Assembly (NCBI GenBank): GCA_965645245.1
Contig: OZ287069.1
Location: forward strand, 1,240,001 to 1,304,000
DNA: 64,000 nucleotides
Origin: Massalongia carnosa
Lineage: Eukaryota
Direction: 5' to 3'
Each line of letters starts with the position of its first letter. Positions within the stretch are counted from its first letter, which is position 1. The notes beneath the pieces are model-generated. The model was not told the DNA's origin. It did not search any database and saw only the letters and a list, made by a program, of their open reading frames with translations. Positions 6,974-63,093 of this stretch are shown here, piece after piece. Made by a program: the position numbers and the translations under genes.

Positions 6974-8632
6974 ATGCTCAATCGAAGATTTAACCCGATA
7001 GGTCATAGACCAAATCGATTGATACCAACAACTCCTCCCCCAGGCCCCCCTCCACAACATCTATGGGTCCCCCCGAGTACTCCCCCGTGCCCCCCCCGAA
7101 CCGACTCCCCCACGCCATCTTCGGTAGCGATAATTGGGAGCAACCCCCTAACCGTAGAATCCACGGAGGCCATGGACCAAACGCGAGAATTTTCGTCCGC
7201 ACCGTCCACACCCACCCCAAAAACGAAACCTTTTGTCGCGCCATCTGGTGAATTCAGTACCAATCTGCCCATGCCATCATTGAATTCTGATATTCGACTG
7301 AGTCCACCAATTAAACGCAACAAAAGACGAACATTTGACGAACATTCGATTGAGAGTCAAGAAGTCATCAATCGATCAAAATCGATTCAACTATTGAATA
7401 CGGCAAAAAATGCATTATTAGAGTCATTCGTAATAGATCAAAACCCCGAAACGGCTATGGTCATCGATCACGTCAATTCTCTACTGGCAAAGAAATCGAT
7501 CAAGCAAAAAGCAACGTTAGAAATGATTGATTGGAAATTGAATAGGGTGCTAGAACAAACTAGCCAAATTCCAGAAACAAAGAGACAATCGGTGCATCCT
7601 GTACAGACAAAATCGAAGGGAAATTCAAATGGAAATTCGAATTTGACTCAAAACGTCAACCCAGAAATTCGGAGCGAAACCGCCGGAGTCCCAGGGCCGC
7701 AGGTCAACGATACAGCTAGAACATGGAGCCAAATGCTCGGAAAAGCGACTGTCAATTCCGAAAATTGGACTACCGTTCCTCGATCCAAAAAAACAAACAA
7801 GAACAACAACAATAATTCGAATGCGAACAAATTCGATAATACTGACGATTTCAAGGCGATCAAATCTCGACGATTGATAATCACACCGAAAGCTCAAATC
7901 GGCGATATCGATTCACTGTTGCTTCGAAACCAAATCAATTCGCTTTTTAAAGACGCGAAATTGACTATCGTTGTTAACACGGTCGAAAAGTCCAAAACGG
8001 ATCAAAACATCGTTCTGACTACTAGTCCTGATAACACTGCTGAAGATTTATTGAACAATAAATCAATATGGGAGCATTTATTCGACCCACGAACAGTTCG
8101 AAAGGACGAATCGTGGTTCAAAGTTGTCGCACACGGTGTAAATATTGCAACATTTGATGAAAACATGCAATATTTGCAAGACGAAATTCAAAAGTTCAAT
8201 TCGAACATGCAATTATGCGATGTTCCCAGATGGCTAGCACGTGATCGTCATAACAAGATCAAATCATCCGTTGTTTTGACATTCAATGATCGAAATATGG
8301 CCTTGAACGCGTTAAAAGGAGTCAATATCGCGGGCCGACATTGTGACACGGAAATATTTACCTCCGTTCGTCCAAACACACAATGCATTAATTGTCAAAA
8401 ATTTGGACACAAGCATTATCAATGCAAAAGTCAAGCGAAATGCAGCATATGTGCGCAAAACCATGAAACACGCAATCATGAATGCACAACATGCAAGTCA
8501 AAAATTGCTTGTGCACACGCCGTCGTCAAATGCGCGAATTGCAACAAGAATCATCAATCCAATGATGAAAATTGTGAAATGGTTATATCGTTAAATGTTC
8601 GAAAATCGACTGACGAATTAGCCGCTTTGTAA
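6974..8632 (+). CDS. LINE ORF1 (gag-like nucleic-acid-binding protein; Pro-rich N-terminus, C-terminal Cys/His knuckles)
   Basis: 552 aa open frame with CINCQKFGHKHYQC, CSICAQNH…C and CANCNKNH…C, as in Tad1-clade ORF1. Confidence 0.93.
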   Translation: MLNRRFNPIGHRPNRLIPTTPPPGPPPQHLWVPPSTPPCPPRTDSPTPSSVAIIGSNPLTVESTEAMDQTREFSSAPSTPTPKTKPFVAPSGEFSTNLPMPSLNSDIRLSPPIKRNKRRTFDEHSIESQEVINRSKSIQLLNTAKNALLESFVIDQNPETAMVIDHVNSLLAKKSIKQKATLEMIDWKLNRVLEQTSQIPETKRQSVHPVQTKSKGNSNGNSNLTQNVNPEIRSETAGVPGPQVNDTARTWSQMLGKATVNSENWTTVPRSKKTNKNNNNNSNANKFDNTDDFKAIKSRRLIITPKAQIGDIDSLLLRNQINSLFKDAKLTIVVNTVEKSKTDQNIVLTTSPDNTAEDLLNNKSIWEHLFDPRTVRKDESWFKVVAHGVNIATFDENMQYLQDEIQKFNSNMQLCDVPRWLARDRHNKIKSSVVLTFNDRNMALNALKGVNIAGRHCDTEIFTSVRPNTQCINCQKFGHKHYQCKSQAKCSICAQNHETRNHECTTCKSKIACAHAVVKCANCNKNHQSNDENCEMVISLNVRKSTDELAAL

Positions 8633-11600
8633 TGGCAGGACAGCATTCGTTGACAAACATCGAAAATACACAAAATGTTAAATTTATTCAACATAATTGT
8701 GCAAAGTCAACGAATGCAATGATATCGTGTTTGGAATATGCTTTATCAAATCAAATTGATATTGTTTTGTTTCAGGAACCATGGACACGAGATCAAAAAA
8801 CAATATCACATCCGTCATTTACATGTATTATGCCAAAAATAGCGACTTATCGCTCGAGAGTAGCTATATTTGTCACAAATGGCAATTCCAAACTGCAATG
8901 CACGCCTAGAACGGATCTTATTGACGATTCCGATATGCAAATTATTGAAATTACAATTGATGAAGTTCGAAAAGTGCAGATTTTCAATATTTATAACGAA
9001 AAAAGTCAAAGTGATCGAGAAACATACACGATCGATCGACTTTTAATCCAATTACAACCAAAATCAACTGATCAATTCGTCATCTGTGGAGATTTCAATG
9101 CACATCATAACTGGTGGAATTCGAAAATTCAACAAGCAATTCGATCAGAAAATCTTGTCAAATGGTTGAAATTAAACAGGTGTAGCTTGATAAACACACC
9201 TGACTTATGTACATACTGCGCCCATTCTGGAAGTTCTTCATCTGTTATTGATTTAACTTTTGCAAATTCTAAAATCGAAAATGCAATTACAAATTGGTCA
9301 ATCGATGAAAACGCAGTCACAGGTTCAGATCATGAAGTCATCCGATTTGAACTAATCGCATCTTTCAAAAACTTGACGTCACATGCAACCGCATTATCGA
9401 ATAAATACAATTGCAATAAAGCTGATTGGAATAAATTCGCGAAGTATCTAGACGAAAATTCAACCATCTATGAATCACAAGTTCAAAGTTTATTGAATAA
9501 TCATCAATTCGACGAATCAGCGATATATTTGCAAAACATTATCAAAAACGCGGCTGAAATGTTTATTCCGAAAACGAAAATTTGTGCAAAATCGAAAAAT
9601 TGGTGGTCGCATGATTTAACTGAACTTCGAAAAACCATGTGCAGACATCGTCGAGAATGGAAGAATTATCCGTCCGATTTTAGTCATCGGACGTTTAAAC
9701 ATAGTCGAATCGAGTATTTTCATGCAATTCGAAAAGCAAAACAACAAACCTGGTTGACTTTTCTAGAAAATGCAGCGAATAAAGACGTGTTTACCGCGTA
9801 TAAATATACTAAACCGCGCATATTCGAAAAAATACCGCCGATTCTACATGAAAACAAGCTAAATGTTCAGTTTGATGACAAATGCGATGCATTTGTGTCA
9901 GCAATGTATACAAAAAACCCATTTATTGACGATAATGAGGAAGATTTATCAAATCAAGACAGCGTAAATGATGATAATTGGCCAGATTTGACCGAAAACG
10001 AGTTGAAAAATGCGATTAGTTTATTTAATCCGAAGAAAGCATGTGGACCTGATGCAATCAATTTTACAATTGTTCAAAAATCGTTTCAATCGTTGAAAAA
10101 CGTGTTTTTCATGATTTATTCGAAATTCATTCGAATCGGTTATCACCCGTTATGCTGGCGGACAGGACTCGGTGCAGTTCTGAAAAAACCTAATAAATCG
10201 GACTATTCGTTTCCAAAATCATATCGAATTATCACATTATTAAATTGTCTTGGTAAAATTGCTGAGAAAATCGTTGCAAATCGACTAGCCTACTTCGGCG
10301 AAAATTCGAATTTACTCGATATCGAACAGATGGGCGGACGCAAAAATCATTCTGCAATTGACGCAGTAATGAACGTTGTTCATGATATTGAAATTGCAAA
10401 TAGAAATAAAAACGTCTTATCATGTTTATTACTCGATGTCAAAGGCGCATTTGACTTTGTCTCGATTAATCAACTGCTAAATGTTATGAAAAAGCTGAAA
10501 TTATCTCGCATAATAATTCAATGGGTCAAGCATTTCATGACAAAGCGATCGATCAATTTGATATTTGATGAAAATTTAAGCAAAACATATTATGTCGAAT
10601 CAGGAATTCCACAAGGCTCACCAATCTCGCCTATTCTATTTCTGATTTACATTCGTCACTTGTTTCCGAAAATACGAATGAAATTCAATGCACATTCTCC
10701 CAGTTTTATTGACGATGTTGCAATATATGTCGAAAATAAAACTGCAAAACAGAATTGCAAAGAAATCGAAATCATAGTCAAAACGGCCTTTGATTGGGCC
10801 GCATCGAATAATATCAAATTTGATGACGATAAATCCGAGCTGATTCACTTCGAAAAGACAAGAAATGTATCGAAAGACACATTGGAATTACCAAACGGGA
10901 CAGTACTAGAACCGAAAAATGTAGTCAAATGGTTGGGCGTCTGGTTAGACCGAAAACTAAATTTCAAAAAACACGTCGAAACGCGGATCTCTTCTGCGAA
11001 TCGATCGTTTTTTGCAATTCAGAATTTGATGAAATCCGAATGGGGTCTGAAACCGACCGCATGCAGACAGCTCTATATGTCATGCATTATTCCTATTTCG
11101 GACTACGGCTCAGAAATTTGGTATAATGGTCAAAAGAAATATGAAAAACTATTTCAGAACCTACAAAATCAAATGATTCGAAAGATTTTAGGAACTTTCA
11201 AAACCACACCTATTCAGGCGATGGAAATTGAATCACATGTTTTACCAGTTAAACTTCGATTATTAATGAAAAATCAAAAATACGCAATTCGATTATTGAA
11301 GATTGCCGAAAATAACCCTATTTGTCAAAGAATTCCAAACACATATTCGATAAAATTCGAAAATATCGGTTTTGACACAAGTTTATGGAACAACAAATAT
11401 GCCGAATGGAACGAAGACGAAAAACAAACAAATAAACGTCATCCTAGTCAGCTTATTCGCGTTCTTCATTCCGTTTCCGATATAGTTCACAAAACTGATG
11501 AATTTGAACAATCAAATCATTTTATTAAACCTTGGAAATCGCCTTGCAAAATCAAATTTCAAATCGAAAATACAAAGGAATCTGCTAAATCAAGTTATTA

Positions 11601-12645
11601 TTCGACCTTATCCAAAATTAAATCAATGAACTCCGATAAATCCCGAGTTTTACTTTATACAGATGGATCGAAAATCGAATTTGCAACGTCTGCAGTCACA
11701 TTTGCGCCAATTATGAGGAATTGGAGTAGTATTATCAATAATTTTGATCGATTTATCGAAAAAGATTGTCTGATCAAGTATCATACGATTTCGAAAAGCT
11801 GGAAATTAAGCAAACAGTCAAGCATTAAAAATGCTGAACTGCATGCAATTTTACAAGCAATGAAATGGGTCTATAAATTGTCTAATACTAATATTTTATC
11901 GAACTTGGAAAAAACGATTTGGATTTTTTCTGATAGTATAAACGCGATAAACGAAATTCAGAACTTGAAAAATCATATTTTCGCAAGACAAATTCGAAAG
12001 CTCGCAAAACGCTTATTTGAAAGCAATTATCAGGTGATTTTGCAATGGGTTCCGAGTCATTCGAATATTACCGAAAACGAAATTGCAGACAAAATAGCAA
12101 AGACGGGCCATAATCAAATCCTAGTCGAGTCCTCGGCTATAACATTTGATTATGTAAAAGATCAAATAAATCAAAATATGCTAACCACATGGACGAATCA
12201 ATGGCAACAATGCAAATCAAAAGGCAAATACTACGAGAAATTCGAAATGAAACCTGGCATATCGAGATTTTATTATTTATCAAACAACTGTTCCAAATTG
12301 ATATTTGCTACTATTATGCAATTAAAATTCGGACACGGCTATTTTCGATCATATTTACATCGATTGAAAGATTATAATTCGTCAAAATGCTCAAATCGAT
12401 GCAATCAACGACAAACGCCAGAACACTTGTTATTGAATTGCATTCACTATTTCGATGAAATTCAAAACATGAAACAAACCATCGATACTACGATCAACTT
12501 GAATATGTTGTTTAATACAAAAATCGGAAATGACATTTTGATTAAATTCATTGTCAATAACAAAATCGCGACTAGAAAATGGATACTAGGTCAGCTTGAT
12601 GACGAGATTTTCGAAACTGGAGGTTGGGGAGAGATCGAACAGTAA
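8632..12645 (+). CDS. LINE ORF2: AP endonuclease, reverse transcriptase, RNase H and C-terminal zinc knuckle
   Basis: 1337 aa. APE motifs QEP, GDFNAHH, IDLT, SDH; RT motifs YRIITLLN, QGSPISP, FIDD, WLG; RNase H motifs YTDGS, AELHAI, FSDS, WVPSH, NEIAD; C-terminal C…C…H…C. Confidence 0.97.
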   Translation: MAGQHSLTNIENTQNVKFIQHNCAKSTNAMISCLEYALSNQIDIVLFQEPWTRDQKTISHPSFTCIMPKIATYRSRVAIFVTNGNSKLQCTPRTDLIDDSDMQIIEITIDEVRKVQIFNIYNEKSQSDRETYTIDRLLIQLQPKSTDQFVICGDFNAHHNWWNSKIQQAIRSENLVKWLKLNRCSLINTPDLCTYCAHSGSSSSVIDLTFANSKIENAITNWSIDENAVTGSDHEVIRFELIASFKNLTSHATALSNKYNCNKADWNKFAKYLDENSTIYESQVQSLLNNHQFDESAIYLQNIIKNAAEMFIPKTKICAKSKNWWSHDLTELRKTMCRHRREWKNYPSDFSHRTFKHSRIEYFHAIRKAKQQTWLTFLENAANKDVFTAYKYTKPRIFEKIPPILHENKLNVQFDDKCDAFVSAMYTKNPFIDDNEEDLSNQDSVNDDNWPDLTENELKNAISLFNPKKACGPDAINFTIVQKSFQSLKNVFFMIYSKFIRIGYHPLCWRTGLGAVLKKPNKSDYSFPKSYRIITLLNCLGKIAEKIVANRLAYFGENSNLLDIEQMGGRKNHSAIDAVMNVVHDIEIANRNKNVLSCLLLDVKGAFDFVSINQLLNVMKKLKLSRIIIQWVKHFMTKRSINLIFDENLSKTYYVESGIPQGSPISPILFLIYIRHLFPKIRMKFNAHSPSFIDDVAIYVENKTAKQNCKEIEIIVKTAFDWAASNNIKFDDDKSELIHFEKTRNVSKDTLELPNGTVLEPKNVVKWLGVWLDRKLNFKKHVETRISSANRSFFAIQNLMKSEWGLKPTACRQLYMSCIIPISDYGSEIWYNGQKKYEKLFQNLQNQMIRKILGTFKTTPIQAMEIESHVLPVKLRLLMKNQKYAIRLLKIAENNPICQRIPNTYSIKFENIGFDTSLWNNKYAEWNEDEKQTNKRHPSQLIRVLHSVSDIVHKTDEFEQSNHFIKPWKSPCKIKFQIENTKESAKSSYYSTLSKIKSMNSDKSRVLLYTDGSKIEFATSAVTFAPIMRNWSSIINNFDRFIEKDCLIKYHTISKSWKLSKQSSIKNAELHAILQAMKWVYKLSNTNILSNLEKTIWIFSDSINAINEIQNLKNHIFARQIRKLAKRLFESNYQVILQWVPSHSNITENEIADKIAKTGHNQILVESSAITFDYVKDQINQNMLTTWTNQWQQCKSKGKYYEKFEMKPGISRFYYLSNNCSKLIFATIMQLKFGHGYFRSYLHRLKDYNSSKCSNRCNQRQTPEHLLLNCIHYFDEIQNMKQTIDTTINLNMLFNTKIGNDILIKFIVNNKIATRKWILGQLDDEIFETGGWGEIEQ

Positions 12646-13215
12646 AATCAGAAACGATTTATGCTGAAACATTCACGAACTTACAAAGACAAATTTTAAA
12701 ATCGATATTCTTCGATTACTATAGGTTGTTACTAACACGGAGTAAAAATGGGGAAAAATTGACAATACATAGATGGGTTATAAAGGGTTGATTTATTTGT
12801 AATATAGAAACATATCCTAAAATAGTTTAGTGTCATAACCTTAGGTTGAATACACTTAATGAATAAATAAAAAAAAAAAAAAAAATATCCTAAAATAGTT
12901 TAGTGTCATAACCTTAGGTTGAATACACTTAATGAATAAATAAATAAAAAAAAGTAATCAACACGGTCGAAAAATCGAAAACCGGTCAGAATATCGTTCT
13001 CGCTACTAGTTCGAAAAACACTGCTGCAGAATTGTTGGAAAACAAATCTATATGGGAACATACGTTCGATGCACAAAGAATTCGAAAAGACGAATCCTGG
13101 ATTAAAGTGATCGCATATGGAGTAAATATTGCAACGTTTGATCAAAATATGCAATATTTGCAAAATGAAATCCAGAAATTCAACCTTAACATGGAATTAT
13201 GCGATTTACCCAGAT

Positions 13216-47719: not shown

Positions 47720-50700
47720 TAGCGCGTATCAGGACGCTCATCAGCGTCATCACTCCGCTACGCTTACTGAGGATCTTTCGATAAAGAGATTCGGATTACA
47801 TAAAAACTTCAGCAAATCTGAAAAGAGCCTTATCATTCAAATGCGTACTGAGCGTATTGGCTTGTCGGATTATCTCTTCTCTCGTTGAGTTACTACGTTC
47901 GCTTCACCGGCGTGAAGCTGTGGATGGGCACGCCAGACGCTCAAGCATGTGCTACACAGCTGCCCCATGTTATGATCAACCTAGAGACAAGTCATAGTGA
48001 TGCTAGAAACGAATACAATAAATATGAAGAAGGAAAAAGACAATCGACAACCAGAACCTGCCCCTATATATCCTCTTTTTTTATTTTTTATTTATTCATT
48101 AAGTGTATTCAACCTAAGGTTATGACACTAAACTATTTTAAGATATGGTTTTATTTTACAAATAAATCAACCCTTTATAACCCAACTATCTATCGTCAAT
48201 ATTGCCCCGTTTTTACTTCGTGTTAGTAACAACCATCGATTTTACAATTTGTTTTTGTAAAGCTCGTAAATATTCCAGCATAAATCATTTCTAGTTTTAC
48301 TGTTCGATCTCTCCCCAACCTCCCGTTTCGATATTTTCGTCATCGAGCTGACCTAGCATCCATTTTCTAGTCGCGATTTTGTTATCAACAATAAATTTAA
48401 TCAAAATATTTTTTCCGATCCTAGTATTAAACAACATTTTTAAAGTAATTGTGGTATCGATATTTTGTTTCATGTTTAGGATTTCATTTGAATAATGTAT
48501 GCAATTCATCAATAAGTGTTCTGGCGTTTTACGTTCGTTGCAGCGCCCTGTGCATTTTGACGAATTATAATCTTTCAATCGGTGCAGATATGATCGAAAA
48601 TAACCGTGTCCGAATTTCATTTGCATAATAGTCGCAAATATTAATTTCGAACAAGTATTCGACAGATAATAAAAACTCGATTTCCCCGGCTGCATTTCGA
48701 ATTTCTCATAGTATTTGCCTTTTGACTTGCATTGTTGCCATTGATTCTCCCATGTGGCTAACATATTTCGATTTATTTGACCCTTTACATAATCAAATGT
48801 TATTATCGAAGACTCGACTAGGATTCCACTATGTCCCGCTTTTGCTGCTTTATCTGCAATTTCATTTTCGACGATTTTCGAATGACTAGGAATCCATTGT
48901 AGAACCACCTGATAATTGTTTCCTAATAAGCATTTCGAGAATTTTCGAATTTGTTTTGCGTAAGTATGATTTGTCAAGTTCTGAATTTCGTTTATCGCGT
49001 TTATGCTATCGGAATAAATCCAAATCGTTTTTTCCAAATTGAAGAGAATATTCGCAATTGTCAATTTGTATGCCCATTTTATTGCTTGTAGTATCGCATA
49101 GAGTTCAGCATTTTTAACGCTTGACTGTTTGTTTAATTTCCAGCTTTTCGAAATCGTATGATGTTTGAGGAGACAATCTTTTTCGACAAAACGATTGAAG
49201 TTATCGGTGAAATTGTTCCAATTTCGCATAATTGGTGCAAATGTGACAGCGGAAGTTGAAAACTCGGTTTTTGATCTATCGGTATAGAGTAACATTCGCG
49301 ATTTATCGGCGTTTATTGATTGGATTTTTGATAAGTCGAATAATAACTTGACTTTGCTGTTTCTTTGGATCTTTCGATTTGGAACTTGATTTTACAAGAC
49401 GGCTTCCATGGTTTGATGAAATTATTTACTGATTCGAATTCATCGGTTTTGTGAACTATATCCGAAACGGAATGAAGAATACGGATAAGCTGACTAGGAT
49501 GAGGTTTACTCGATTTTTTCTCGTCTTCGTTCCATTCAGCATATCTGTTGTTCCATAAACTAGTGTCAAAACCGATGTTTTTGAATTTCACAGAATAGGT
49601 ACTGGGAATTCTTTGACAAATAGGATTATTTTCGGCAATCTTCAATAATCGAATTGCGTATTTTTGATTTTTCATCAACAATCGTAGCTTGGCTGGTAAA
49701 ATATGCGATTCAATTCCATCGCCTGAACAGGCGTCGTTTTGAATGTGCCTAAAATCTTTCGAATCATTCGATTTTGCAGATTCTGAAATAGCTTTTCATA
49801 TTTCTTTTGACCGTTATACCAGATTTCTGAGCCATAGTCCGAAATAGGAATAATACATGACAGATAGAGCTGTCTGCATGCAGTTGGCTTTAGTCCCCAT
49901 TCAGACTTCATCAAATTTTGAATTGCGAAAAACGATCGATTTGCAGAAGCAATTCGCGTTTCGCCGTGTTTTTTGTAATTTAGTTTTCGGTCTAACCAGA
50001 CTCCTAACCATTTGACAGAATTTTTCGGTTCTAGTATTGTCCCGTTTAGTAATTGCACTTTGTCTTTTGATGCATTTCTTGACTTTTCGAAGTGAATCAA
50101 CTCAGATTTGTCGTCATCAAATTTGACATTATTCGTTGCGGCCCAATCAAAAGCTGTTTTGACGATAATTTCGATTTCTTTGCAATTCTGTGTGGCAGTT
50201 TTATTTTCGACATATATTGCAACATCTTCTATAAAGCTAGGTGAATGAGCATTGAATTTCATTCGTATTTTCGGAAATAAGTAACGAATATAAATCAGAA
50301 ATAGAATTGGCGAAATAGGTGAACCTTGTGGAATTCCAGATTCGATATAGTACGTTTTGCTTTTGTGTTCATCGAATATCAAATATGTCGATCGTTTTGT
50401 CATAAAATGCTTGACCCATTGAATAACTATGCGAGATAAATGCAGCTTTTTCATAACATTTAGCAATTGATTAATCGAAACAAAGTCAAATGCTCCTTTG
50501 ACATCGAGTAATAGACATGATAAAACGTTTTTGTTTCGGTTTGCGATTTCGATATCATGAACGACGTTCATTACCGCATCGATTGCAGAATGATTTTTCC
50601 GTCCGCCCATTTGTTCGGTATCTAACAAGCTCGAATTTTCGCCGAGGTAGGCTAGTCGATTAGCAACTATTTTCTCCGCAATTTTACCAAGACAATTCAG

Positions 50701-51940
50701 TAAGGTAATAATTCGATATGATTTTGGCAGCGAGTAGTCTGGTTTATTAGGTTTTTTTAAACAGCACCGAGTCCTGTTCGCCAACATAACGGGCTAAGAA
50801 TGATAAAATAGAGTTGACATCTCTCTCCTTCGTGAAGTCTCTATCCCAGTTTGCGTTCATCTCACTGGTGCGTTTTACAGCCCAAGATTATTGATGAATT
50901 CTACGATTGGGGTGAACGACGTCCCTTTCGCCCAGGTCAAACCCAGTTTACTCCTTAAGCATATATCAAGGGCGAGTCTAGCCGTAGCCCATGCGCCGGC
51001 GAACCGACGGGGTCTCGTTACGAGCGAGATAGACATTCCCTGCTCTATATACACCGACATGCGCATACTGTCCTCTCGGGCTATGCAGACGGTCTCCGTA
51101 CGGTGGCCGCCATTGCATACCACGCCTCACGGGTTTTTTACGCCCACTTCGCGTTATTCATAAAGGTCTCCCGTTTATGAACCGACCATGTCTCGCGGGG
51201 ATTTCGACCGCTATGCTCCTGACCAGGCAGTATAGTATCGATTTTCCGTCCCTACTAACCAAAACGAGTCGAGGACAACTCGGAGGGGTGCTCGTTTCAA
51301 ATTCGTCTATTAGCTCAGGGCCTAGACTGTTATCAATTAACGGGTTCCTCGTATATTGCCCTCTTCTTGTCCCAAGGGTGTCCTATTTGATGACTAGGTT
51401 GCCTCCACCATCCCCGGTACGACTCCGGTGCGGGCCGTGTTGCTCACGGTAGCCATCAATCGGATAGTTTTCATAACCCAAATCCCTTGTATCGTGTAGG
51501 GTGTGACCCTACACTATGTGTCTATATGTTTTATTTCTTTCAGCCGGAGGGCTCCGTGTTGTAGACGAAGGAGACCCGTGTGACAGACATAGCTGACCCG
51601 TGTCGTACGTCTTTAGCTCTCAGCCGATGACTCATGAAAGGACTTGAACCTTTAAGAGTATGACTGAACGTTGTTAACGAGGTCTATGAAAATCTTATTA
51701 ACGAGGTCTTCGAGAACAATATTAACGAAGTTCCGCTGAACTCTTTTCATTCGTTTTGTGATCCATCGAGGTCTACCCGTGTCAAATCCACACCATGCCC
51801 GTGTCAAAATGCATCATTTTCAGCTGATGACTGCTAGAAAGGACTTGAACCTCTAAAAATATGTACGCCGATATTAACGGGGTGCAGATCTGTCTTAACG
51901 AGCCCCCGCAGAACCCCCTTCACAGGGACGTGTTATTGAT

Positions 51941-52135
51941 TTGTGATTGTGTTTTTTGTGACTGTGTGTTTTGTGACTGTGTGTTTTGTGACAGTGTGTT
52001 TTGTGACTGTGTGTTTTGTGACTCTGTGTTTTGTGACTGTGTGTTTTTTGACTGTGTGTTTGTGACTGTATGTTTGTGACTGTGTGCTTTGTACAACGTG
52101 TGATTGATGACTATGTGTTTTGTGACTCTGTGTTT
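51941..52135. repeat. 15-bp minisatellite (tgtgttttgtgactg)n within element X
   Basis: Directly visible; a shorter inverse copy lies at ~54210-54340. Confidence 0.92.
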
Positions 52136-52575
52136 TCCTCGATTTTATTTAACAGGCCGGGCCTATTAAATGGGATATTGTTATTCTGCTCCGAGATGGA
52201 GTTTTCTTGAGGTGACAGCATTCGCCCCGGTGCCTTTACGCGTTCTGTTGATCCCAGCTGATGACTGCATGGGGAGACTTGAACTCTCAGGAGCTAGAAC
52301 GCGTGTCGATTGTGCCCGGGTGGGGGATGATGCGGCTCCTTTGGTCCACATCTTCTTCCAGCTGATGACTGCATGAAGGGACTTGAACCCTTAGAAGCAT
52401 GGTGCAGGGACGCGCGCATTCTACCCCCCGGCGGTTGTCCTTCGTATCCTCTTCCGTACGTACGTCTGCGACGCGTGTGAACGCGTTAAATTAGCATTGT
52501 TTTGATGCGAAAAGATAGGAGCAAATCTATGTTTGTCGGTCGCTCCACGGTGAGGCCTTTGGCGTCTCCGTGGTG

Positions 52576-52716
52576 AGGACCGATGGTGTAGAAGGAGGAC
52601 CGATGGTGTAGAAGGAGGACCGATGGTGTAGAAGGAGGAGGACCGATGGTGTAGAAGGAGGAGGACCGATGGTGTAGAAGGAGGAGGACCGATGGTGTAG
52701 AAGGAGGAGGACCGAT
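52576..52716. repeat. 23-bp tandem array (gaggaccgatggtgtagaaggag)n near the 5' end of element X
   Basis: Directly visible; also present at 53634-53760 (inverse) and 62815-62977. Confidence 0.93.
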
Positions 52717-53381
52717 ATATAATAATGTGATAGTAAATGTGATAGTAAATGTGATCCCTATATATCCTCTACTGCGCTAGTACACATGTGGTATAGTCGT
52801 CATGGAACCTTCTAGCAGCTGCGGGAACGAAATCGAAAGCGCCTGCGTGTTCCATCTACGATTGCCCTAGGCGGTGCCGAGTGCCGATGGCGTGCCGTGT
52901 AGAATCGTGGCACCCCAGGTTTGTTAATGGCTGAAGCAACATGTGCAGAGACACCGGAACGACGGATTATCGCCGCCTTCTGACCACCGAAAAGGGTTTA
53001 CGAGCCTCCACTCGCTGGCTTATGCGGACTATTCTACTGACACAGTTTTTCGCTAGCTGTAGAGTGTATTTCTTCCTCCACCTAATTATCGCGTAGTGAT
53101 AGTCACAAACTCTAGATATAACAGAGACAGAAGGTAGTATTTTGATAAGCATGTGCGTCGTAGACGTGGCGCTGGCGAAACGTAGCATTCGCCAAGTAAG
53201 GTCGAGCGATCACGTGAAGGTATACAGATGAAAGATTTTTCCCCTTGATGAGGGTTTTCCATCTTTGAAACTTTGATAGCTTTTCTCGCATGGGTCGGCT
53301 GTAGCTGATGTCACAACGAGTATGAATTTAATAATAATAATACATATTTATTTGCTGCATTTCCTAGAAAAATAAATCAGG

Positions 53382-53633
53382 TTTATTTTTTATTTTTTAT
53401 TTATTCATTAAGTATATTCAACCTAAGGTTATGATACTAAACTTTTCTAGGATATGTTACTATAATACAATTTTTTTATCTTGTATTCATTGAGTGTATT
53501 CAACCTAAGGTTATGACACTAAACAATTTTAGGATATGTTTCTATAATACAAATAAATCAACCCTTTATAACCCATATATGTATGTATCGTCAATTTTTC
53601 CCCGATTTTACTCCGTGTTAGTAACAACCTATA
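53382..53633 (-). mobile_element. Two tandem LINE 3'-end stubs (53382-53470 and 53471-53633)
   Basis: Each has a T tract followed by a variant of attcattaagtgtattcaacctaaggttatga. Confidence 0.85.
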
Positions 53634-54825
53634 TCGGTCCTCCTCCTTCTACGCCATCGGTCCTCCTCCTTCTACACAATCGGTCCTCCTCCTTCTACAC
53701 CATCGGTCCTCCTCCTTCTACACCATCGGTCCTCCTCCTTCTACACCATCGGACCATCGGTTCTCACCACGGAGACGCCAAAGGCCTCACCGTGGGGCGA
53801 CCGTCAAACATATAGATTTGCTTCTATCTCTTCGCATTAAAACAATGCTAATTTAACGCGTTCACACGCGTCGCAGAAGTACGTACGGAAGAGGATACGA
53901 GGGGCCAACCGCCGGGGGTAGAATGCGCGCGTCCCTGCACCATGCTTCTAAGGGTTCAAGTCCCTTCTTGCAATCATCAGATGGAAGAAGATATGGACCA
54001 AAGGAGCCGCATAATCCCCTACCGGGGCACAGTCGACACGCGTTCTAGCTCCTGAGTGTTCAATTCTCCCCATGCAGTCATCAGCTGGAATCAACAGAAC
54101 GGGTAAAGGCACCGGAGTGAATGCTGTCACCTCAAGAACACTCTATCTCGGAGCAGAATAACAATATCCCATTTAATAGGCCCGGCCTGTTAAATAAAAT
54201 CGAGGAAAACAGAGAGTCACAAAACACATTTTTATCAATCACACGTTATACGAAGCATACAGTCACAAAGCACACAGTCACAAAGCACACAGTCACAGGG
54301 CATACAGTCACAAACATACAGTCACAAACACACAGTCACAAATCAATAACACGTCCCTGTGAAGGGGGTTCTGCTGGGGCTCGTTAAGACAGATCTGCGC
54401 CCCGTTAATATCGGAGTACATATTTTTAGAGGTTCAAGTCCTTTCTAGAAGTCATCGGCTGAAAATAACGTATTTTGACACGGGCATGGTGTGGATTTGA
54501 CACGGGTAGACCTCGATGGATCACAAAACGAATGAAAAGAGTTCAGCGGAACTTCGTTAATATTGTTCTCGAAGACCTCGTTAATAAGATTTTCATAGAC
54601 CTCGTTAACAACGTTGGGTCATACTCTTAAAGGTTCAAGTACTTTTATGCAGTCATCGGCTGAGAGCTAAAGACGTACGACACGGGTCAGCTATGACTAT
54701 CACGCGGGTCTCCTTCGTCTACAACACGGAGCCCTCCAGCTGAAAGAAATAAAACATATAGACACATAGTTTAGGGTCACACCCTACACGATAAAAGGGA
54801 TTTGGGTTATGAAAACTATCCGATT
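53630..54825 (+). mobile_element. Element X copy 2 (inverse of 51458-52719), cut at its 3' side by LINE E
   Basis: Colinear reverse-complement match with scattered substitutions and repeat-number changes. Confidence 0.9.
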
Positions 54826-57800
54826 TTTTTCATTATTTATTTATTCATTAAGTGTATTCAACCTAAGGTTATGATACTAAACTATTTTAAGATATGTTTT
54901 TATTTTACAAAATAAATCAACCTTTTATAATCCATCTATGTATCGTCAATATTGCCCCGTTTTTACTCCGTGTTAGTAACAACCTTTAGTAATCGAAATG
55001 CTGATTTTACAATTTGTTTTTGTAAAGCTCGTTAATATTCCAGCATAAATCATTTCTAATTTTACTCTTCGATCTCCCCCCAACCTCCCGTTTCGATATT
55101 TTCGTCATCGAGCTGACCTAGCATCGATTTTCTAGTCGCGATTTTGTTATCAACAATAAATTTAATCAAAATATTATTTCCGATCCTAGTATTAAACAAC
55201 ATTTTTAAAGTAATTGTGGTATCGATATTTTGTTTCATGTTTAGGATTTCATTGGAATAATGTATGTAATTAATTCATCAATAAGTGTTCTGGCGTTTGT
55301 CGTTCGTTGCAGCGCCCTGTGCATTTTGACGAATTATAATCTTTCAATCGGTGCAGATATGATCGAAAATAACCGTGTTGGAATTTCATTTGCATAATAG
55401 TAGCAAATATCAATTTCGAACAATTATTCGACAGATAATAAAAACTCGATTTGCCCGGCTGCATTTCGAATTTCTCGTAGTATTTGCCTTTTGACTTGCA
55501 TTGTTGCCATTGATTCGCCCATGTGGCTAACATATTTCGATTTATTTGACCTTTTATATAATCAAATGTTATTATCGAAGACTCGACTAGGATTCGACTA
55601 TGTCCCGCTTTTGCTGCTTTATCTGCAATTTCATTTTCGATTTTCGAATGACTAGGAATCCATTGTAGAACCACCTGATAATTGTTTCCGAATAAGCATT
55701 TCGAGAATTTTCGAATTTGTTTTGCGTAAGTATGATTTGTCAAGTTCTGAATTTCGTTTATCGCGTTTATGCTATCGGAATAAATCCAAATCGTTTTTTC
55801 CAAATTGAAGAGAATATTCGCAATTGTCAATTTGTATGCCCATTTTATTGCTTGTAGTATCGCATAGAGTTCAGCATTTTTAACGCTTGACTGTTTGTTT
55901 AATTTCCAGCTTTTCGAAATCGTATGATGTTTGAGGAGACAATCTTTTTCGACAAAACGATTGAAGTTATCGGTGAAATTGTTCCAATTTCGCATAATTG
56001 GTGCAAATGTGACAGCGGAAGTTGAAAACTCGGTTTTTGATCCATCGGTATAGAGTAACATTTGCGATTTATCGGCGTTTATTGATTGGATTTTTGATAA
56101 AGTCGAATAATAACTTGACTTTGCTGTTTCTTTGGATCTTTCGATTTGGAACTTGATTTTACAAGACGGCTTCCATGGTTTGATGAAATTATTTACTGAT
56201 TCGAATTCATCAGTTTTGTGAACTATATCCGAAACGGAATGAAGAATACGGATAAGCTGACTAGGATGAGGTTTACTCGATTTTTTCTCGTCTTCGTTCC
56301 ATTCAGCATATCTGTTGTTCCATAAACTAGTGTCAAAACCGATGTTTTCGAATTTCACCGAATAGGTACTGGGAATTCTTTGACAAATAGGATTATTTTC
56401 GGCAATCTTCAATAATCGAATTGCGTATTATTGATTTTTCATCAACAATCGTAGCTTGGCTGGTAAAATATGAGATTCAATTTCCATCGCCTGAACAGGC
56501 GTGGTTTTGAATGTGCCTAAAATCTTTCGAATCATTCGATTTTGCAGATTCTGAAATAGCTTTTCATATTTCTTTTGATCATTATACCAGATTTCTGAGC
56601 CATATTCCGAAATAGGAATAATGCATGACAAATAGAGCTGTCTGCATGCAGTTGGCATTAGTCCCCATTCAGACTTCATCAAATTTTGAATTGCGAAAAA
56701 CGATCGATTTGCAGAAGCAATTCGCGTTTCGAGGTGTTTTTTTTAATTTAGTTTTCGGTCTAACCAGACTCCTAACCATTTGACAGAATTTTTCGGTTCT
56801 AGTATTGTCCCGCTTGGTAATTGCACTTTGTCTTTTGATGCATTTCTTGACTTTTCGAAGTGAATCAACTCAGATTTGTCGTCATCAAATTTGACATTAT
56901 TCGTTGCGGCCCAATCAAAAGCTGTTTTGACGATAATTTCGATTTCTTTGCAATTCTGTTCGCAGTTTTATTTTCGACATATATTGCAACATCGTCTATA
57001 AAGCTAGGTGAATGAGCATTGAATTTCATTCGTATTTTCGGAAATAAGTAACGAATATAAATCAGAAATAGAATTGACGAAATTGGGTGAACCTTGTGGA
57101 ATTCCAGAATCGATATAGTACGTTTTGCTTTTGTGTTCATCGAATATCAAATTGATCGATCGTTTTGTCATAAAATGCTTGACCCATTGAATAACTATGC
57201 GAGATAAATGCAGCTTTTTGATGAGATTTAGCAATTGATTAATCGAAACAAAGTCAAATGCTCCTTTTACATCGAGTAATAGACATGATAAAACGTTTTT
57301 GTTTCGGTTTGCGATTTCGATATCATGAACGACGTTTATTACCGCATCGATTGCACCATGATTTTTGCGTCCGCCTATTTGTTCGGTATCTAACAAGCTC
57401 GAATTTTCGCCGAGGTAAACTAGTCGATTAGAAACTATTTTCTCCGCAATTTTACCAAGACAATTCAGTAATGTAATAATTCGATTTGATTTTGGCAGCG
57501 AGTAATCTGGTTTATTAGGTTTTTTTTAAAACTGCACCGAGTCCTGTTCGCCAGCATAACGGGTGATAACCGATTTGTATTATTTTAGAATAAATAGTAA
57601 AAAATACGTTTTTAAATGGTTGAATCGATTTTTGAACTATTGTGAAATTGATTGCATCAGGTCCACATAATTTCTTTGGATTAAACAAACTAATCGCATT
57701 TTGCAATTCATTTTCGGTTAAATTCGGCCAATTGTTGTCATTTTCGCTGTCTTGCTTCGTTAGATCTTCAATATTATCGTCCGTGAACAGGTTTTTTGTA

Positions 57801-58254: not shown

Positions 58255-58454
58255 NNNNNNNNNNNNNNNNNNNNNNNNNNNNNNNNNNNNNNNNNNNNNN
58301 NNNNNNNNNNNNNNNNNNNNNNNNNNNNNNNNNNNNNNNNNNNNNNNNNNNNNNNNNNNNNNNNNNNNNNNNNNNNNNNNNNNNNNNNNNNNNNNNNNNN
58401 NNNNNNNNNNNNNNNNNNNNNNNNNNNNNNNNNNNNNNNNNNNNNNNNNNNNNN
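58255..58454. other. Assembly gap (200 N)
   Basis: Run of N. Confidence 1.
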
Positions 58455-61400: not shown

Positions 61401-62788
61401 ACCAAGATGAAGCATTTTATTCCATGCAGAGAAACCACCGACGCTAAGGCCTTGGCTAGGCTATACGTGGAACATGTCTGGAAACTTCATGGCCTACCTG
61501 ACTCCATTGTATCGGACCGAGGAGGCCAGTTCATCGCTGACTTCTGGAAAGCACTATGTGAACGACTAAAGATCAACAGTCGGCTATCCATATCGTTTCA
61601 CCCGGAGACCGACGGTCAAACGGAACGATATAACGCGATCATGGAACAAGACCTCAGAAGCTATATATCCTATCAACAAGATGACTAGACCGACTGGTTG
61701 CCCATGGCTGAGTTCGCTAGCAATAACTCCGACTCCGAAACAACGTCCGTCAGCCCGTTCCTTGCTAACTATGGTTTCCACCCCCGTCTTGGTTTTGAAC
61801 CTGTTCGTCGCGACTCCCCTAATGCGCAGGTCATTAGCGCCGACGAATTCGCCTCCAAAATGCAAAGTATCAGTGAACACCTCGGCGACGAAATACGCCT
61901 AGTTCAAGCGCGTTATGAAGCATCTGCTAATGCAAACAGGACCCCGGCTCCCATATTTCATGTCGGTGACGAGGTATGGTTGGACGCTAGGCATATAAAG
62001 ACCAAACGACCATCACGAAAGTTGGATTGGAAAAAGCTTGGAAGGTTCATTATAAAGAAGGTTGTTAGCAAGTACGCATACGAGTTAGACATTCCCGCCC
62101 CTATGAAAGTTCATCCTGTGTTCCATGTCTCTCTTCTAGAACCTGTCTCTCAACACCCCCACGTCGGCCACATACCCGCTCCTTCTCCCCCTGTCGAAGT
62201 TGAAGGTGAAACAGAGTAGGAAGTCGAAGAAATTTTGGACTCCCGTTTCTTTCGAAGACGATTACAATACCTGATCAAATGGACTGGTTGGGACGCCCCC
62301 GACTGGACTGAAGCTAAGGACGTCACCCACTGCTCAGACTATTGGAAGACTTTCATCGATTGAGGCCTACCAAGCCTGGTGGTCCTCGCGGAGCTCGGAC
62401 CTAAAAGGGGAGCTGGTGTTATGGAGTGACTGGGCACCTGCCAGTTAGTTCATTGAACCAACCTTAGCTGCTTGAACGAAGCACTAGCCGGCTAGCCGAT
62501 CCGAAACGAACTAAGCTTAATCCGGTTTAGTCAGGGCAAAGGTAAGTGATCCGGCTGAAGGTAAGTGTTCGGACTGTCAATAGTGTCATAGCGATAGTTT
62601 CATGCCTGGGACTTGGGAAATTGGAGCAATGGCTGGATTGGGACTGGTTCCGTTCGCCAGAGTCTTATACTCGCCCACGTTGGATTTTCTGTTTCTTTTC
62701 TCCTTGTCGAACGTCTTGTCCACCTAGCTAGACAATCAAGTAATACGTTTGCACCATCTGAATTTCTACCTGACCTCGCACCGTGACA
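58455..62788 (+). mobile_element. Ty3/Gypsy chromovirus G3 (degenerate pol plus 3' LTR 62417-62788); the 5' part lies in or beyond the gap; inserted into element X copy 3
   Basis: DCGV protease, YIDD RT, TDSSD RNase H, GHPG/SDRGGQF integrase and chromodomain ~62210-62340; PPT aaaaggggag; TGTTATGG…CCGTGACA LTR. Confidence 0.93.
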
Positions 62789-63093
62789 GGTGAGGCCTTT
62801 AGCGTCTCCGTGGGGAGGACCGATGGTCCGATGGTGTAGAAGGAGGAGGACCGATGGTGTAGAAGGAGGAGGACCGATGGTGTAGAAGGAGGAGGACCGA
62901 TGGTGTAGAAGGAGGAGGACCGATGGTGTAGAAGGAGGAGGACCGATGGTGTAGAAGGAGGAGGACCGATGGTGTAGGATAGCAAATATTTATGATGTGA
63001 TAATAATAAAATAATGTAATAGTAAATGTGAGAGTAATTTAAATGATGCGGTAGTGCTTTAATAATATGGTGGTGGTTTAACGGTGCGAGCCT
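62789..63093 (-). mobile_element. Element X copy 3, 5' portion
   Basis: Matches 52549-52755 including the 23-mer array and the taatgt(g/a)atagtaaatgtga motif, and extends further. Confidence 0.85.

Follow-up and report, generated by a model that had tools for sequence, protein, structure and literature searches.

Eight copies of a compact motif in Massalongia carnosa appear, from comparison with their relatives, to encode a real and conserved RNA fold with three stems and a tRNA-like loop. They lie in a 64,000-nucleotide stretch of DNA, hereafter the window (assembly GCA_965645245.1, contig OZ287069.1, forward-strand positions 1,240,001 to 1,304,000; coordinates below are those of the window), within a non-coding leader that stands in front of a 5'-truncated LINE. 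The motif may be a structural module that works at the RNA level in the leader of fungal LINE-linked retroelements, a reading that is plausible and falls somewhat short of probable.

A sequence-only reading of the window had placed four motif copies on the minus strand within 51617-52397 and four on the plus strand within 53945-54666; all eight are found there, and the sequence at these places reads as described. The word GGTTCAAGTCC, with at most one mismatch, occurs six times in the window (0.85 expected), and GCAGTCATCRGCTG, with at most two mismatches, eight times (0.38 expected); 0 of 100 shuffles reached either count, and every match falls at one of the eight sites. A covariance model trained on copies from outside the window scored the eight at 48.9-64.6 bits, and its sole other match in the 64 kb reached 11.1 bits (E 0.58). 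Word counts and covariance model agree that the window holds no further copies.

On the minus strand, copy 1, with the three-way junction of an outer stem P1, a T-arm-like P2 and a P3, occupies 52355..52397 (model match 52346-52406, 64.6 bits), followed by copy 2 at 52252..52292 (52242-52302, 63.2 bits), copy 3 at 51816..51860 (51808-51868, 61.1 bits) and copy 4 at 51617..51658 (51608-51667, 48.9 bits). Copy 3 has CGTTAA-type boxes on its upstream side and GACACGGGCA boxes on its downstream side, and copy 4 has lost one base of GCAGTC, in the P3 region, which is present in other genomic copies. The plus-strand counterparts are copy 1' in the right inverted copy at 53945..53987 (53936-53996, 59.4 bits), with two changes within P3; copy 2' at 54050..54090 (54040-54100, 52.1 bits), with the loop altered to TTCAATT; copy 3' at 54422..54466 (54414-54474, 58.9 bits); and copy 4' at 54624..54666 (54615-54675, 57.1 bits). 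The copies of the right arm show TTCAATT, GTAC and GCAATCATCAGATG. The motif copies in the window are thus slightly decayed.

P1, the closing outer stem, is free in sequence; its inner 4 bp are always there, and in some families it extends to at least 11 bp. A single U directly after P1 leads to P2, which has 5 bp and a loop UUCAAGU closed by a G-C pair. A linker of 4-5 nt separates P2 from P3, a near-invariant hairpin CAGU-CAUCR-GCUG that continues directly into the 3' strand of P1. The junction is compact, with about 19 near-invariant nucleotides, and is reiterated up to four times per leader examined. The outer stem and the TTCAAGT hairpin had been recognised from the letters alone, and the stems listed at that time do pair, with G-U pairs solely on the strand then named. 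The piece described then as a short linker and conserved GCAGTCATCRGC is predicted to form a third helix, a 4-bp hairpin in which CAGU and GCUG close a 5-nt loop, which makes the motif a three-way junction. The P2 hairpin matches what we take to be the consensus of the tRNA T-arm and T-loop, a 5-bp stem with a 7-nt loop UUCRANN. The loop reads TTCAAGT in alignments A1 and A3, and the closing G-C pair is present in 49 of the 50 copies of A1 and 36 of the 40 copies of A3. Through ascertainment, the T-loop and P3 look more conserved than they are: the first motif search required GTTCAAGT and AGTCATCRGCTG, and the covariance-model search shares this bias.

Compensatory changes and a strand-specific excess of G-U pairs uphold the earlier proposal of an RNA fold under selection on the strand inferred to be transcribed. 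The fold is kept by 130 motif copies, spread across 46 fungal-type metagenome loci and the window. These 130, out of 149 model matches, score at least 27.3 bits and are confined to fungal-type loci and the window; matches in unrelated contigs stay at or below 22.2 bits, and the 8 loci matched by pattern in collections of viruses and prokaryotes at or below 21 bits. In 40 representative copies with less than 85% mutual identity, pairing holds in 93.1% of the cells of 13 core pairs, against a mean of 81.1% in shuffles, a baseline already this high because transition-type stem variation mostly pairs anyway. None of 500 shuffles reached the observed value, and sliding the partners gave 57% at most. 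The stem variation consists mostly of transitions, is asymmetric in purines and pyrimidines between the strands, and leaves three of the four combinations paired regardless; RIP mutation in fungi yields transitions. Many of the motif copies are paralogues and are therefore not independent.

Changes on both sides occur in 9 of the 13 core pairs in these 40 copies. Fully paired haplotypes make up 19 of 32 in P1 and 19 of 31 in P2; one fully paired haplotype is the transversion pair GAUGG/CCAUC, and the first pair of P3 is swapped from C-G to G-C in two copies of locus L060. RNAalifold gives the three-way junction as the predicted fold. Cells with G-U outnumber those with A-C in the inner part of P1 (15 vs 7), in P2 (29 vs 5; 44 vs 12 for the two combined) and in P3 (53 vs 0), where a U-G pair is invariant. 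Thermodynamics is not counted as support, since single-sequence folding z-scores are near zero for both strands: the window copies range from -0.82 to +0.36, no better than shuffles, and the three-way junction is the minimum-energy fold in two of the eight, one being copy 1 (52355..52397). Support for the predicted fold comes from the comparison among copies. Of 28 substitution sites listed across 51400-52560 from read contigs of four runs, one falls within the 171 nt of motif cores, where about four are expected, a deficit that gives a weak hint of constraint on the cores. The leader recurs in many fungal-type contigs, in the sequencing runs of four organisms and in one lichen metagenome. Summed contig depth over 51400-52560 is very high, a depth figure that does not represent a copy number.

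The region around the motifs had been described as a single "element X". A blastn comparison and a target-site duplication instead resolve it into two oppositely oriented insertions of a leader-LINE chimera. Their inverted arms span 51458-52719 and 53630-54825; single blocks are 93-97% complementary, and the figure over 1269 aligned bases is 88.7%. The left insertion is a chimeric retroelement made of a 1.96-kb non-coding leader with four motifs and a 5'-truncated LINE. The leader, which resembles the WEIRD RNA discussed below, covers 1962 nt of the minus strand (50794..52755); its 5' end (52755) is set by the target-site duplication and its 3' end by the LINE homology that begins at 50793. 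From 5' to 3', it comprises tandem 23-mers, motifs 1-2, a 15-mer minisatellite, motifs 3-4, conserved structured blocks and the end ...CTTAGC. Between the motifs and the ends of the leader lie 358 nt on the 5' side and 823 nt on the 3' side. The ORF list has no entry of at least 200 aa in 50794..52755, where stop-to-stop frames reach 139 aa at most. Two segments, 51014-51263 and 51371-51521, are about 70-76% identical to the leaders of metagenome loci, and the 3'-terminal region is similar across loci. A second structured leader domain is predicted downstream of the motifs at 51360..51530 (minus strand), where RNAalifold on 15 sequences gives 43 pairs, 23 of them with compensatory changes.

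Behind the leader, the 5'-truncated LINE body (48077..50793, minus strand) contains the C-terminal part of the reverse transcriptase, RNase H and an A-rich 3' tail, with Pfam RVT_1 and RNase_H in ORFs 49675-50787 and 48297-49295. It corresponds to positions 10146-12882 of a full-length copy at about 5960-12954, to which it is 85.8% identical over 2739 bases (blastn). A perfect 15-bp target-site duplication brackets leader and LINE as a whole and abuts both ends, with its left copy CCCTATATATCCTCT at 48062..48076, next to the LINE 3' tail, and its twin at 52756..52770. The target-site duplication test concerns the window copy, the LINE 3' ends lying outside the metagenome loci. The other insertion comprises a second, partial leader copy, inverted relative to the first (53634..54825, plus strand; about leader positions 38 to 1300; 88.7% over 1269 bases to 51458-52719), and a LINE 3'-terminal fragment head-to-head with it (53383..53633, minus strand; blastn to LINE positions 12720-12957, 86.9%). 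Together, these two parts look like an inverted insertion of the twin-priming type. A reading of the palindrome as a foldback transposon was rejected on the target-site duplication and the LINE junctions.

The same arrangement extends to the metagenome loci. The leader is about 1.4 to 2.1 kb long where both ends can be placed. In one family group, a sharp 5' end is seen in every one of 11 rows and a constant 3' end in every one of 18, the latter reading ...TTGGC with the variants TTAGC, TTGGT, TTGGA and TTGAC. An end of this type occurs in the window and in eight of the nine loci inspected; the contig of L060 stops earlier, and L052 has two candidate ends. The points at which the leader joins the LINE number at least 12 among 18 loci. 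Junction letters common to the LINE template are found in all seven mapped junctions (GC in five, GT in one, GA in one), and the window's own junction has just 1 nt of microhomology. Wherever a locus has both motifs and LINE ORF2 pieces (12 of 12), the motifs are placed upstream on the same strand, as they are in the window. The attached ORF2s share just 25-34% protein identity among LINEs while the leader is about 70-76% identical at the nucleotide level, which argues that the leader does not co-evolve with one LINE lineage. No solo leader was found among the loci examined. Splicing was rejected as an origin of these junctions because AG is missing from the end of their LINE side. Judged by their sequence architecture, the products belong to the MINE/WEIRD kind of chimeric retroelement.

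The fold is new to Rfam 15, where it has no entry. Among the Rfam 15 families, which include ribozymes, xrRNA, SRP, telomerase RNA and snoRNA, none matched the window at gathering score, and at E up to 10 just four and three weak, unrelated matches appeared, none on the motif. The Rfam tRNA model likewise had no match at gathering score in the window, nor at E up to 10 on 51400-54900. For the self-cleaving ribozyme or nuclease-blocking element suggested by the sequence-only reading, no known Rfam family matches. No published description of the fold, or of AGTCATCAGCTG, was found in the literature searched. A C/D-box snoRNA, which UGAUGA might recall, was ruled out by the lack of a D box, and a primer-binding site complementary to a tRNA 3' end by the sequence after the hairpin, which does not fit. 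The SRP Alu domain and telomerase CR4/5, which we take to be topological parallels with an outer stem and two hairpins, were dropped when the Rfam SRP and telomerase models gave no match.

The favoured role starts from the fungal LINE reverse transcriptase, which would add the leader to the front of a 5'-truncated LINE cDNA through a microhomology-assisted template switch. The three-way junction would serve as a docking handle that imitates the T-arm or elbow of a tRNA, and its partner might be a host factor recognising tRNA arms, the ribosome or a LINE protein. Docking would stabilise the leader RNA and hold it near the LINE ribonucleoprotein, and the leader 3' end would become the preferred acceptor once the enzyme runs off its template. 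This docking handle, with its binding and its effect on template switching, is put forward tentatively, as a possibility rather than a probability. A wider conjecture, which we consider unlikely, would make the leader a widespread and ancient fungal non-coding RNA that survives by attachment to LINE cDNAs. Its reiterated tRNA-elbow mimic would bring it to the LINE ribonucleoprotein or the translating ribosome, the reverse transcriptases of unrelated LINE lineages would pick its ...TTGGC end, and the leader would give a promoter to dead 5'-truncated copies.

The motif may instead act at the DNA level, its GGTTCAAGTCC core being a Pol III B box, an extra-TFIIIC site or a monomer of an internal promoter, and the hairpin a by-product. 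The B-box fit seen in the sequence-only reading holds, as GGTTCAAGTCC is present six times with at most one mismatch, and the DNA word agrees with GGTTCRANNCC, which we take to be the B-box consensus. Mouse L1, with its promoter monomers, offers a parallel. Several loci have tandem units at 183-nt spacing, and CGTTAATAC-type boxes upstream (13 of 40 copies) and ACACGGG-type boxes downstream (12 of 40) fit a promoter monomer equally well; a retro-copied leader would also require an internal promoter to remain active, and the Magnaporthe chimeras are transcribed according to PMC2104539. However, the B box spans only the loop and two stem pairs, whereas covariation also involves the three remaining pairs of P2 and the four inner pairs of P1, and the excess of G-U is strand-specific. 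An A box with at most two mismatches was found in 3 of 40 copies, in a scan up to about 97 nt upstream, against 137 of 800 shuffles, and a run of five or more T, as a Pol III terminator, follows within 150 nt downstream in 1 of 40. A DNA-level role by itself is therefore rather doubtful; by analogy with tRNA genes, it could coexist with one in the RNA. The collinearity of leader and LINE (12 of 12) and the absence of solo leaders among the loci examined also suit a leader that is simply the LINE's own 5' UTR, with junctions binding a protein as the 5' RNA of R2 does and the copies arising by internal deletion. In the longest copies, L016 and L013, the leader stands 350-620 nt before the ORF2 endonuclease start on the same strand. 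Such deletions would need one end fixed at ...TTGGC and the other varying over at least 12 sites, and this 5'-UTR explanation is improbable in view of the junction microhomology to the leader end, of one leader joined to LINE lineages with ORF2s just 25-34% identical, and of the full-length LINE of the window (about 5960-12954), which has its own ORF1 and no motif.

With its compact build and many near-invariant nucleotides, the junction could also be a place where the leader RNA is cut, either by itself as a ribozyme or by RNase P or RNase Z acting on a tRNA-like signal. Ribozymes are reported from R2, L1Tc and Penelope-like retroelements, and the opposite strand of the motif has the hammerhead core word CUGAUGA. 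An antisense hammerhead was nevertheless rejected: CUGAUGA lies within the P3 hairpin, no helix II and no conserved GAAA are present on that strand (GAA itself is not conserved, as in the copy at 52252-52292), G-U pairs become A-C mismatches there, and no Rfam ribozyme or tRNA matches even at E up to 10. The motifs are internal and intact in every retro-copied leader examined, and 5'-truncated copies begin at L013 coordinates 1382, 1525, 1727 and 1764, well away from the first motif (2117). Efficient self-cleavage, tRNA-type processing and an Xrn1 stop are all disfavoured by these internal, intact motifs and by truncations that start elsewhere, and cutting of the leader RNA at the motif has only a slim chance of being right. 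Hardly any more credit is due to a neutral relic, in which the head of a tRNA-derived SINE or the 3' half of a tRNA is kept by recent copying, or to an exonuclease block of the xrRNA kind; both are very unlikely. The T-arm consensus is matched perfectly, and fungal tRNA-derived SINEs do join such chimeras (Mg-SINE, PMC2104539). However, compensatory changes across 40 divergent copies are not expected of a relic, and ARAGORN found 0 tRNA genes in the 64 kb. A tRNA-derived SINE head, named beforehand as one case that would speak against the proposal, is thus not what the window contains, and the early remark that neither cloverleaf nor A box is evident was borne out, the A box not being enriched. 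For the exonuclease block, Rfam has no xrRNA match, and no pile-up of copy 5' ends at the motifs was seen.

The closest known system is MINE of Magnaporthe grisea, a fusion of the WEIRD non-coding RNA with a 5'-truncated MGL LINE (Gogvadze et al. 2007, PMC2104539, whose reference list cites Fudal et al. 2005). The two systems share a whole non-coding leader at the 5' side, joined directly and in the same orientation to a LINE truncated at many sites; target-site duplications, 15 bp here and 10-20 bp in Magnaporthe; a short common word at the junctions, mostly GC here and GCC upstream of the switch site there; and the absence of solo leaders (PMC2104539). The leaders differ in length: WEIRD has 1113 nt, against 1.96 kb for the leader of the window, about 2.07 kb for that of one family and about 1.4 kb for that of L016. 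PMC2104539 reports no WEIRD-like sequence in other genomes, whereas the leader described here occurs in many fungal-type contigs with different LINE lineages. No RNA motif is described in its text from abstract to Methods, and the likeness to WEIRD is one of architecture, by description. Mammalian U6 snRNA-L1 chimeras, as presented there (PMC2104539), likewise carry a full small RNA fused by template switching before a 5'-truncated LINE, with target-site duplications. Their partner is an snRNA of known cellular function, unlike the kilobase-long structured RNA found here. U6 snRNA measures 107 nt. The leader seems specialised for fusion with a LINE, or at least very prone to it.

With the tRNA T-arm or B box, in what we take to be its consensus form, the motif shares a 5-bp stem, a 7-nt loop U-U-C-R-A-N-N and the G-C closing pair. 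Unlike a tRNA, it lacks acceptor, D and anticodon arms as well as an A box and a terminator, it is negative with ARAGORN and the Rfam tRNA model, and its insert, P3, is attached 3' of the hairpin, a mirror-image arrangement relative to tRNA. Box B of brome mosaic virus RNA was reportedly characterised by Baumstark and Ahlquist in 2001 as a T-arm mimic that acts as a replication-recruitment element. The likeness is one of principle only, a T-arm mimic in a longer non-tRNA RNA as a handle for protein recognition; box B belongs to a viral plus strand, is present once per RNA and lacks a three-way junction with a second invariant hairpin. Penelope-like elements and retrozymes have hammerhead ribozymes (PMC4209133), which are also small three-way junctions in the non-coding part of retroelements, and CUGAUGA on the antisense strand adds to the likeness. 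In the motif, however, this word is in the P3 hairpin and not at the junction, GAAA and helix II are missing, and the wobble pairs point to the strand opposite this word.

A small RNA fold with so many compensatory changes is rare among eukaryotic repeats. Leader-LINE chimeras were previously reported only from Magnaporthe, with a leader said to lack relatives and a known function. The same architecture recurs here with a conserved structured leader and offers a handle on this old puzzle. If it is the junction that brings the leader to the LINE machinery, one could directly test how the template-switch partner is chosen, a choice that also underlies the mammalian U6-L1 chimeras. Even as a mere promoter monomer or stability element, the motif would still be a useful annotation marker for this repeat family in fungal genomes. 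If the tRNA-elbow reading is true, it would reveal a new way for retroelements to live as parasites or mutualists and a novel class of RNA motif that mimics tRNA, and would account for the "WEIRD" RNA of Magnaporthe, unexplained since 2005.

The window is a retroelement-dense stretch of eukaryotic DNA, in which Pfam recognises genes of Ty3/gypsy and copia elements as well as LINE ORFs with endonuclease, reverse transcriptase and RNase H domains. All eight motif copies reported in the sequence-only reading are present at their positions. In the window, GGTTCAAGTCC with at most one mismatch occurs six times against 0.85 expected, and GCAGTCATCRGCTG with at most two mismatches occurs eight times against 0.38 expected. 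Every one of these matches lies within 51617–52397 (minus) or 53945–54666 (plus), and the two motif groups sit in inverted arms at 51458–52719 and 53630–54825. ARAGORN finds no tRNA gene in the window. Rfam 15 gives zero matches in the window at gathering score and, at E up to 10, none on the motifs, in 51400–54900 or in one related locus. As far as Rfam 15 and the literature searched show, the motif is undescribed.

Real copies recurrently fold as a three-way junction in RNAfold. The outer stem P1, which reaches up to 11 bp with G-U pairs in some families, is followed by one U; P2 is a 5-bp hairpin with the loop UUCAAGU, followed by a linker of 4–5 nt; and P3 (CAGU-CAUCR-GCUG) abuts the 3' strand of P1. 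The outer stem and hairpin recognised earlier stand, and what had been described as a linker and a conserved word is, given this recurrent fold, the third helix.

The fold was scored over 13 core pairs in 40 rows less than 85% alike. Copies are paralogues and thus not independent. Pairing holds in 93.1% of the core-pair cells; shuffles average 81.1%, with 0 of 500 as high, and sliding the partners by 1–3 columns leaves at most 57.2% paired. Both sides have changed in nine of the 13 core pairs. Of 32 inner-P1 haplotypes 19 are fully paired, as are 19 of the 31 found for P2; transversion-type stems (GAUGG/CCAUC, AAUGG/CCAUU) are among them. RNAalifold, run independently, arrives at these three helices too. 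G-U cells exceed A-C cells in inner P1 (15 v 7), P2 (29 v 5) and P3 (53 v 0), which identifies the RNA strand as the one originally named. Stem variation consists mostly of transitions, with one purine strand against one pyrimidine strand, so that three of four stem combinations pair; fungal RIP mutation gives the same transition pattern. The invariance of the T-loop and P3 is partly ascertainment, since both were required by the search. Folded singly, the window copies do no better than shuffles (z −0.82 to +0.36); two of the eight have the junction as their minimum-energy fold. The earlier proposal of an RNA fold under selection, here with a mimic of the T-arm, gains support from the pairing relative to shuffles, the both-side changes and the G-U strand bias, and the fold and its context can be accepted with high confidence.

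Metagenome contigs were scanned with the pattern GTTCAAGTN{6,12}AGTCATCRGCTG, yielding 97 matches in 68 loci, about 46 of which are true relatives; the others are chance matches on unrelated contigs. A covariance model from 50 distinct copies, searched against the window plus 66 loci (without L038 and L041, which overlap L016 and L031), gave 149 matches at E up to 1. Of these, 130 score 27.3–77.9 bits (8 in the window, 122 in fungal-type loci), and the other 19 score at most 22.2 bits. Elsewhere, the motif pattern occurs in one viral and seven prokaryote loci, all at 21 bits or less and all without P2. The original pattern does not match 42 of 88 distinct real rows; these rows reveal variation in the P3 loop (CAUCA, CAUCG, CAUUA, CACCG, CAUUU, CAACA), and two L060 copies have G-C in place of C-G as the first pair of P3. 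The ORFs flanking the motifs in these loci are fungal (Fungal_trans_2, DUF3723, GH20), many copies have a RIP-mutated appearance, and one of the sequencing runs listed as carrying the sequence is labelled lichen metagenome.

The motifs are carried by a non-coding leader fused ahead of 5'-truncated LINEs. LINE ORF2 pieces follow the motifs on the same strand in all 12 loci having both, and their ORF2 start positions differ widely between loci. The leader 5' end is sharp, with unrelated flanks (11 of 11 rows), and the 3' end is a constant ...TTGGC, with variants TTAGC, TTGGT, TTGGA and TTGAC (18 of 18 rows). An end of this type is found in the window and in eight of nine loci inspected; the L060 contig ends before the leader 3' end, and L052 has two candidate 3' ends. 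Behind the leader end, one LINE body forms a nested truncation series with at least 12 junction points in 18 loci. At all seven junctions mappable on a longer copy, the letters of the leader end also end the LINE template just upstream (GC five times, GT and GA once each); such shared letters are the mark left by a template switch assisted by microhomology. The ORF2s of the leader-joined LINE lineages share only 25–34% identity, whereas blocks of the leader itself reach about 70–76% at the nucleotide level; the leader thus behaves as its own entity. In the window, the blocks 51014–51263 and 51371–51521, left of the inverted repeat, have 67–76% nucleotide identity to motif-adjoining sequence in most loci.

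Downstream of the motifs, a second covarying leader domain, formed by the latter of these blocks, lies at 51360–51530 (minus) and also in L009, L012, L016, L017, L022 and others. For it, RNAalifold predicts 43 pairs from 15 sequences, and 23 of these pairs show compensatory changes. It is followed by a conserved 3'-terminal leader domain of about 250 nt containing GCTTAAGGAGTAAAC. A 15-mer minisatellite (GTGTGTTTTGTGACT-like) separates motifs 2 and 3 (51940–52110, 54220–54340), and 23-mer tandem repeats lie close to the leader 5' end (52575–52716, 53630–53755); repeat numbers vary among contigs of other genomic copies. In a contig from sequencing run X1, the edge of motif 4 is joined to that of motif 1 (51663 to 52398, 734 bases skipped), which looks like recombination between motif copies inside one leader. 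Up to three motif units with a 183-nt period stand in tandem in L013, L064 and relatives (~2050–2600), reminiscent of mouse L1 promoter monomers. At many copies, CTCGTTAATACYGG-type boxes occur directly upstream of the junction, with GTTAATA in 13 of 40, while the boxes directly downstream are of YRACACGGGCA type, with ACACGGG in 12 of 40; the boxes are often doubled. Examples are 51861–51900 and 51780–51815 in the window, and L022, L016 and L060. Such boxes may bind proteins as DNA or belong to an internal loop of the RNA, and one family has ATAGGAG and CTCCTAT, which could pair around them.

In the window, 48076–50793 (minus) corresponds by blastn to positions 12882–10146 of the full-length LINE at ~5960–12954, so the leader, which runs from 52755 to 50794 (minus), is fused to a LINE truncated at its 5' end. 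A perfect 15-mer, CCCTATATATCCTCT, at 48062–48076 and 52756–52770 borders the A-rich tail of the LINE at one end and the first leader base at the other, and this target-site duplication around both shows that leader and LINE were inserted as one retro-copied unit. The right arm is a partial leader (53634–54825, plus; leader positions ~38 to 1300), head-to-head with a LINE 3' fragment (53383–53633, minus). The layout of 53383–54825 is as expected if leader-LINE RNA of this kind had been inserted in inverted form by twin priming, which is the probable reading; its A/T-rich flanks show no demonstrable target-site duplication. What was formerly regarded as a single element X is therefore two insertions about 610 bp apart, not a foldback element. 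A third leader 5'-region fragment at 62780–63035 (GTGAGGCCTTT..., 23-mer tandem repeats, AT-rich start) has 85–99% identity to 52549–52754 and diverges at 62780, with no motif after that point within the window. The AT-rich, apparently full-length LINE at 5960–12954 encodes ORF1 (552 aa) and ORF2 (1337 aa; endonuclease, RT, RNase H). Its 3'-terminal unit of ~75 nt is repeated, a similar stretch occurs at its 5' end, and at least six more copies lie in the window. An assembly gap (N run) at 58255–58450, inside a nest of LINE copies, makes the arrangement right of the second leader copy not resolvable.

The leader-LINE fusion itself is already known. In MINE of Magnaporthe grisea, the MGL LINE, truncated at 28 different sites in 33 elements, is joined to full-length WEIRD, a non-coding RNA of 1113 nt; these chimeras have target-site duplications of 10–20 bp, and the word GCC marks their switch sites. 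Solo WEIRD copies were not found, and WEIRD is described as having neither a counterpart in other genomes nor a known function (PMC2104539). The leader-LINE chimera shares this architecture, a likeness of organisation, and is a variant of a known but obscure retroelement kind.

A role of the junction in cleavage, processing or exonuclease stopping, which the sequence-only reading had suggested as a ribozyme or nuclease block, is not supported: the motifs lie inside the leader (358 nt from the 5' end, 823 nt from the 3' end) and are retained in every retro-copied leader examined, and 5'-truncated copies start far from them. Membership in a Pol III gene is counted against by the lack of an A box, as had been noted (here 3 of 40 copies vs 17% of shuffles), and by a downstream T5 run in only one of 40. 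A contribution at the DNA level would fit the 183-nt tandem units and the conserved boxes around many copies (CGTTAATAC-type upstream in 13 of 40, ACACGGG-type downstream in 12 of 40).

The favoured reading, held tentatively, is that the junction is a putative RNA docking handle mimicking the tRNA T-arm. The closest working parallel is the box B element of brome mosaic virus. Candidate partners are a host factor that binds T-arms, the ribosome and the LINE protein, and such a handle would hold the leader close to the reverse transcriptase.
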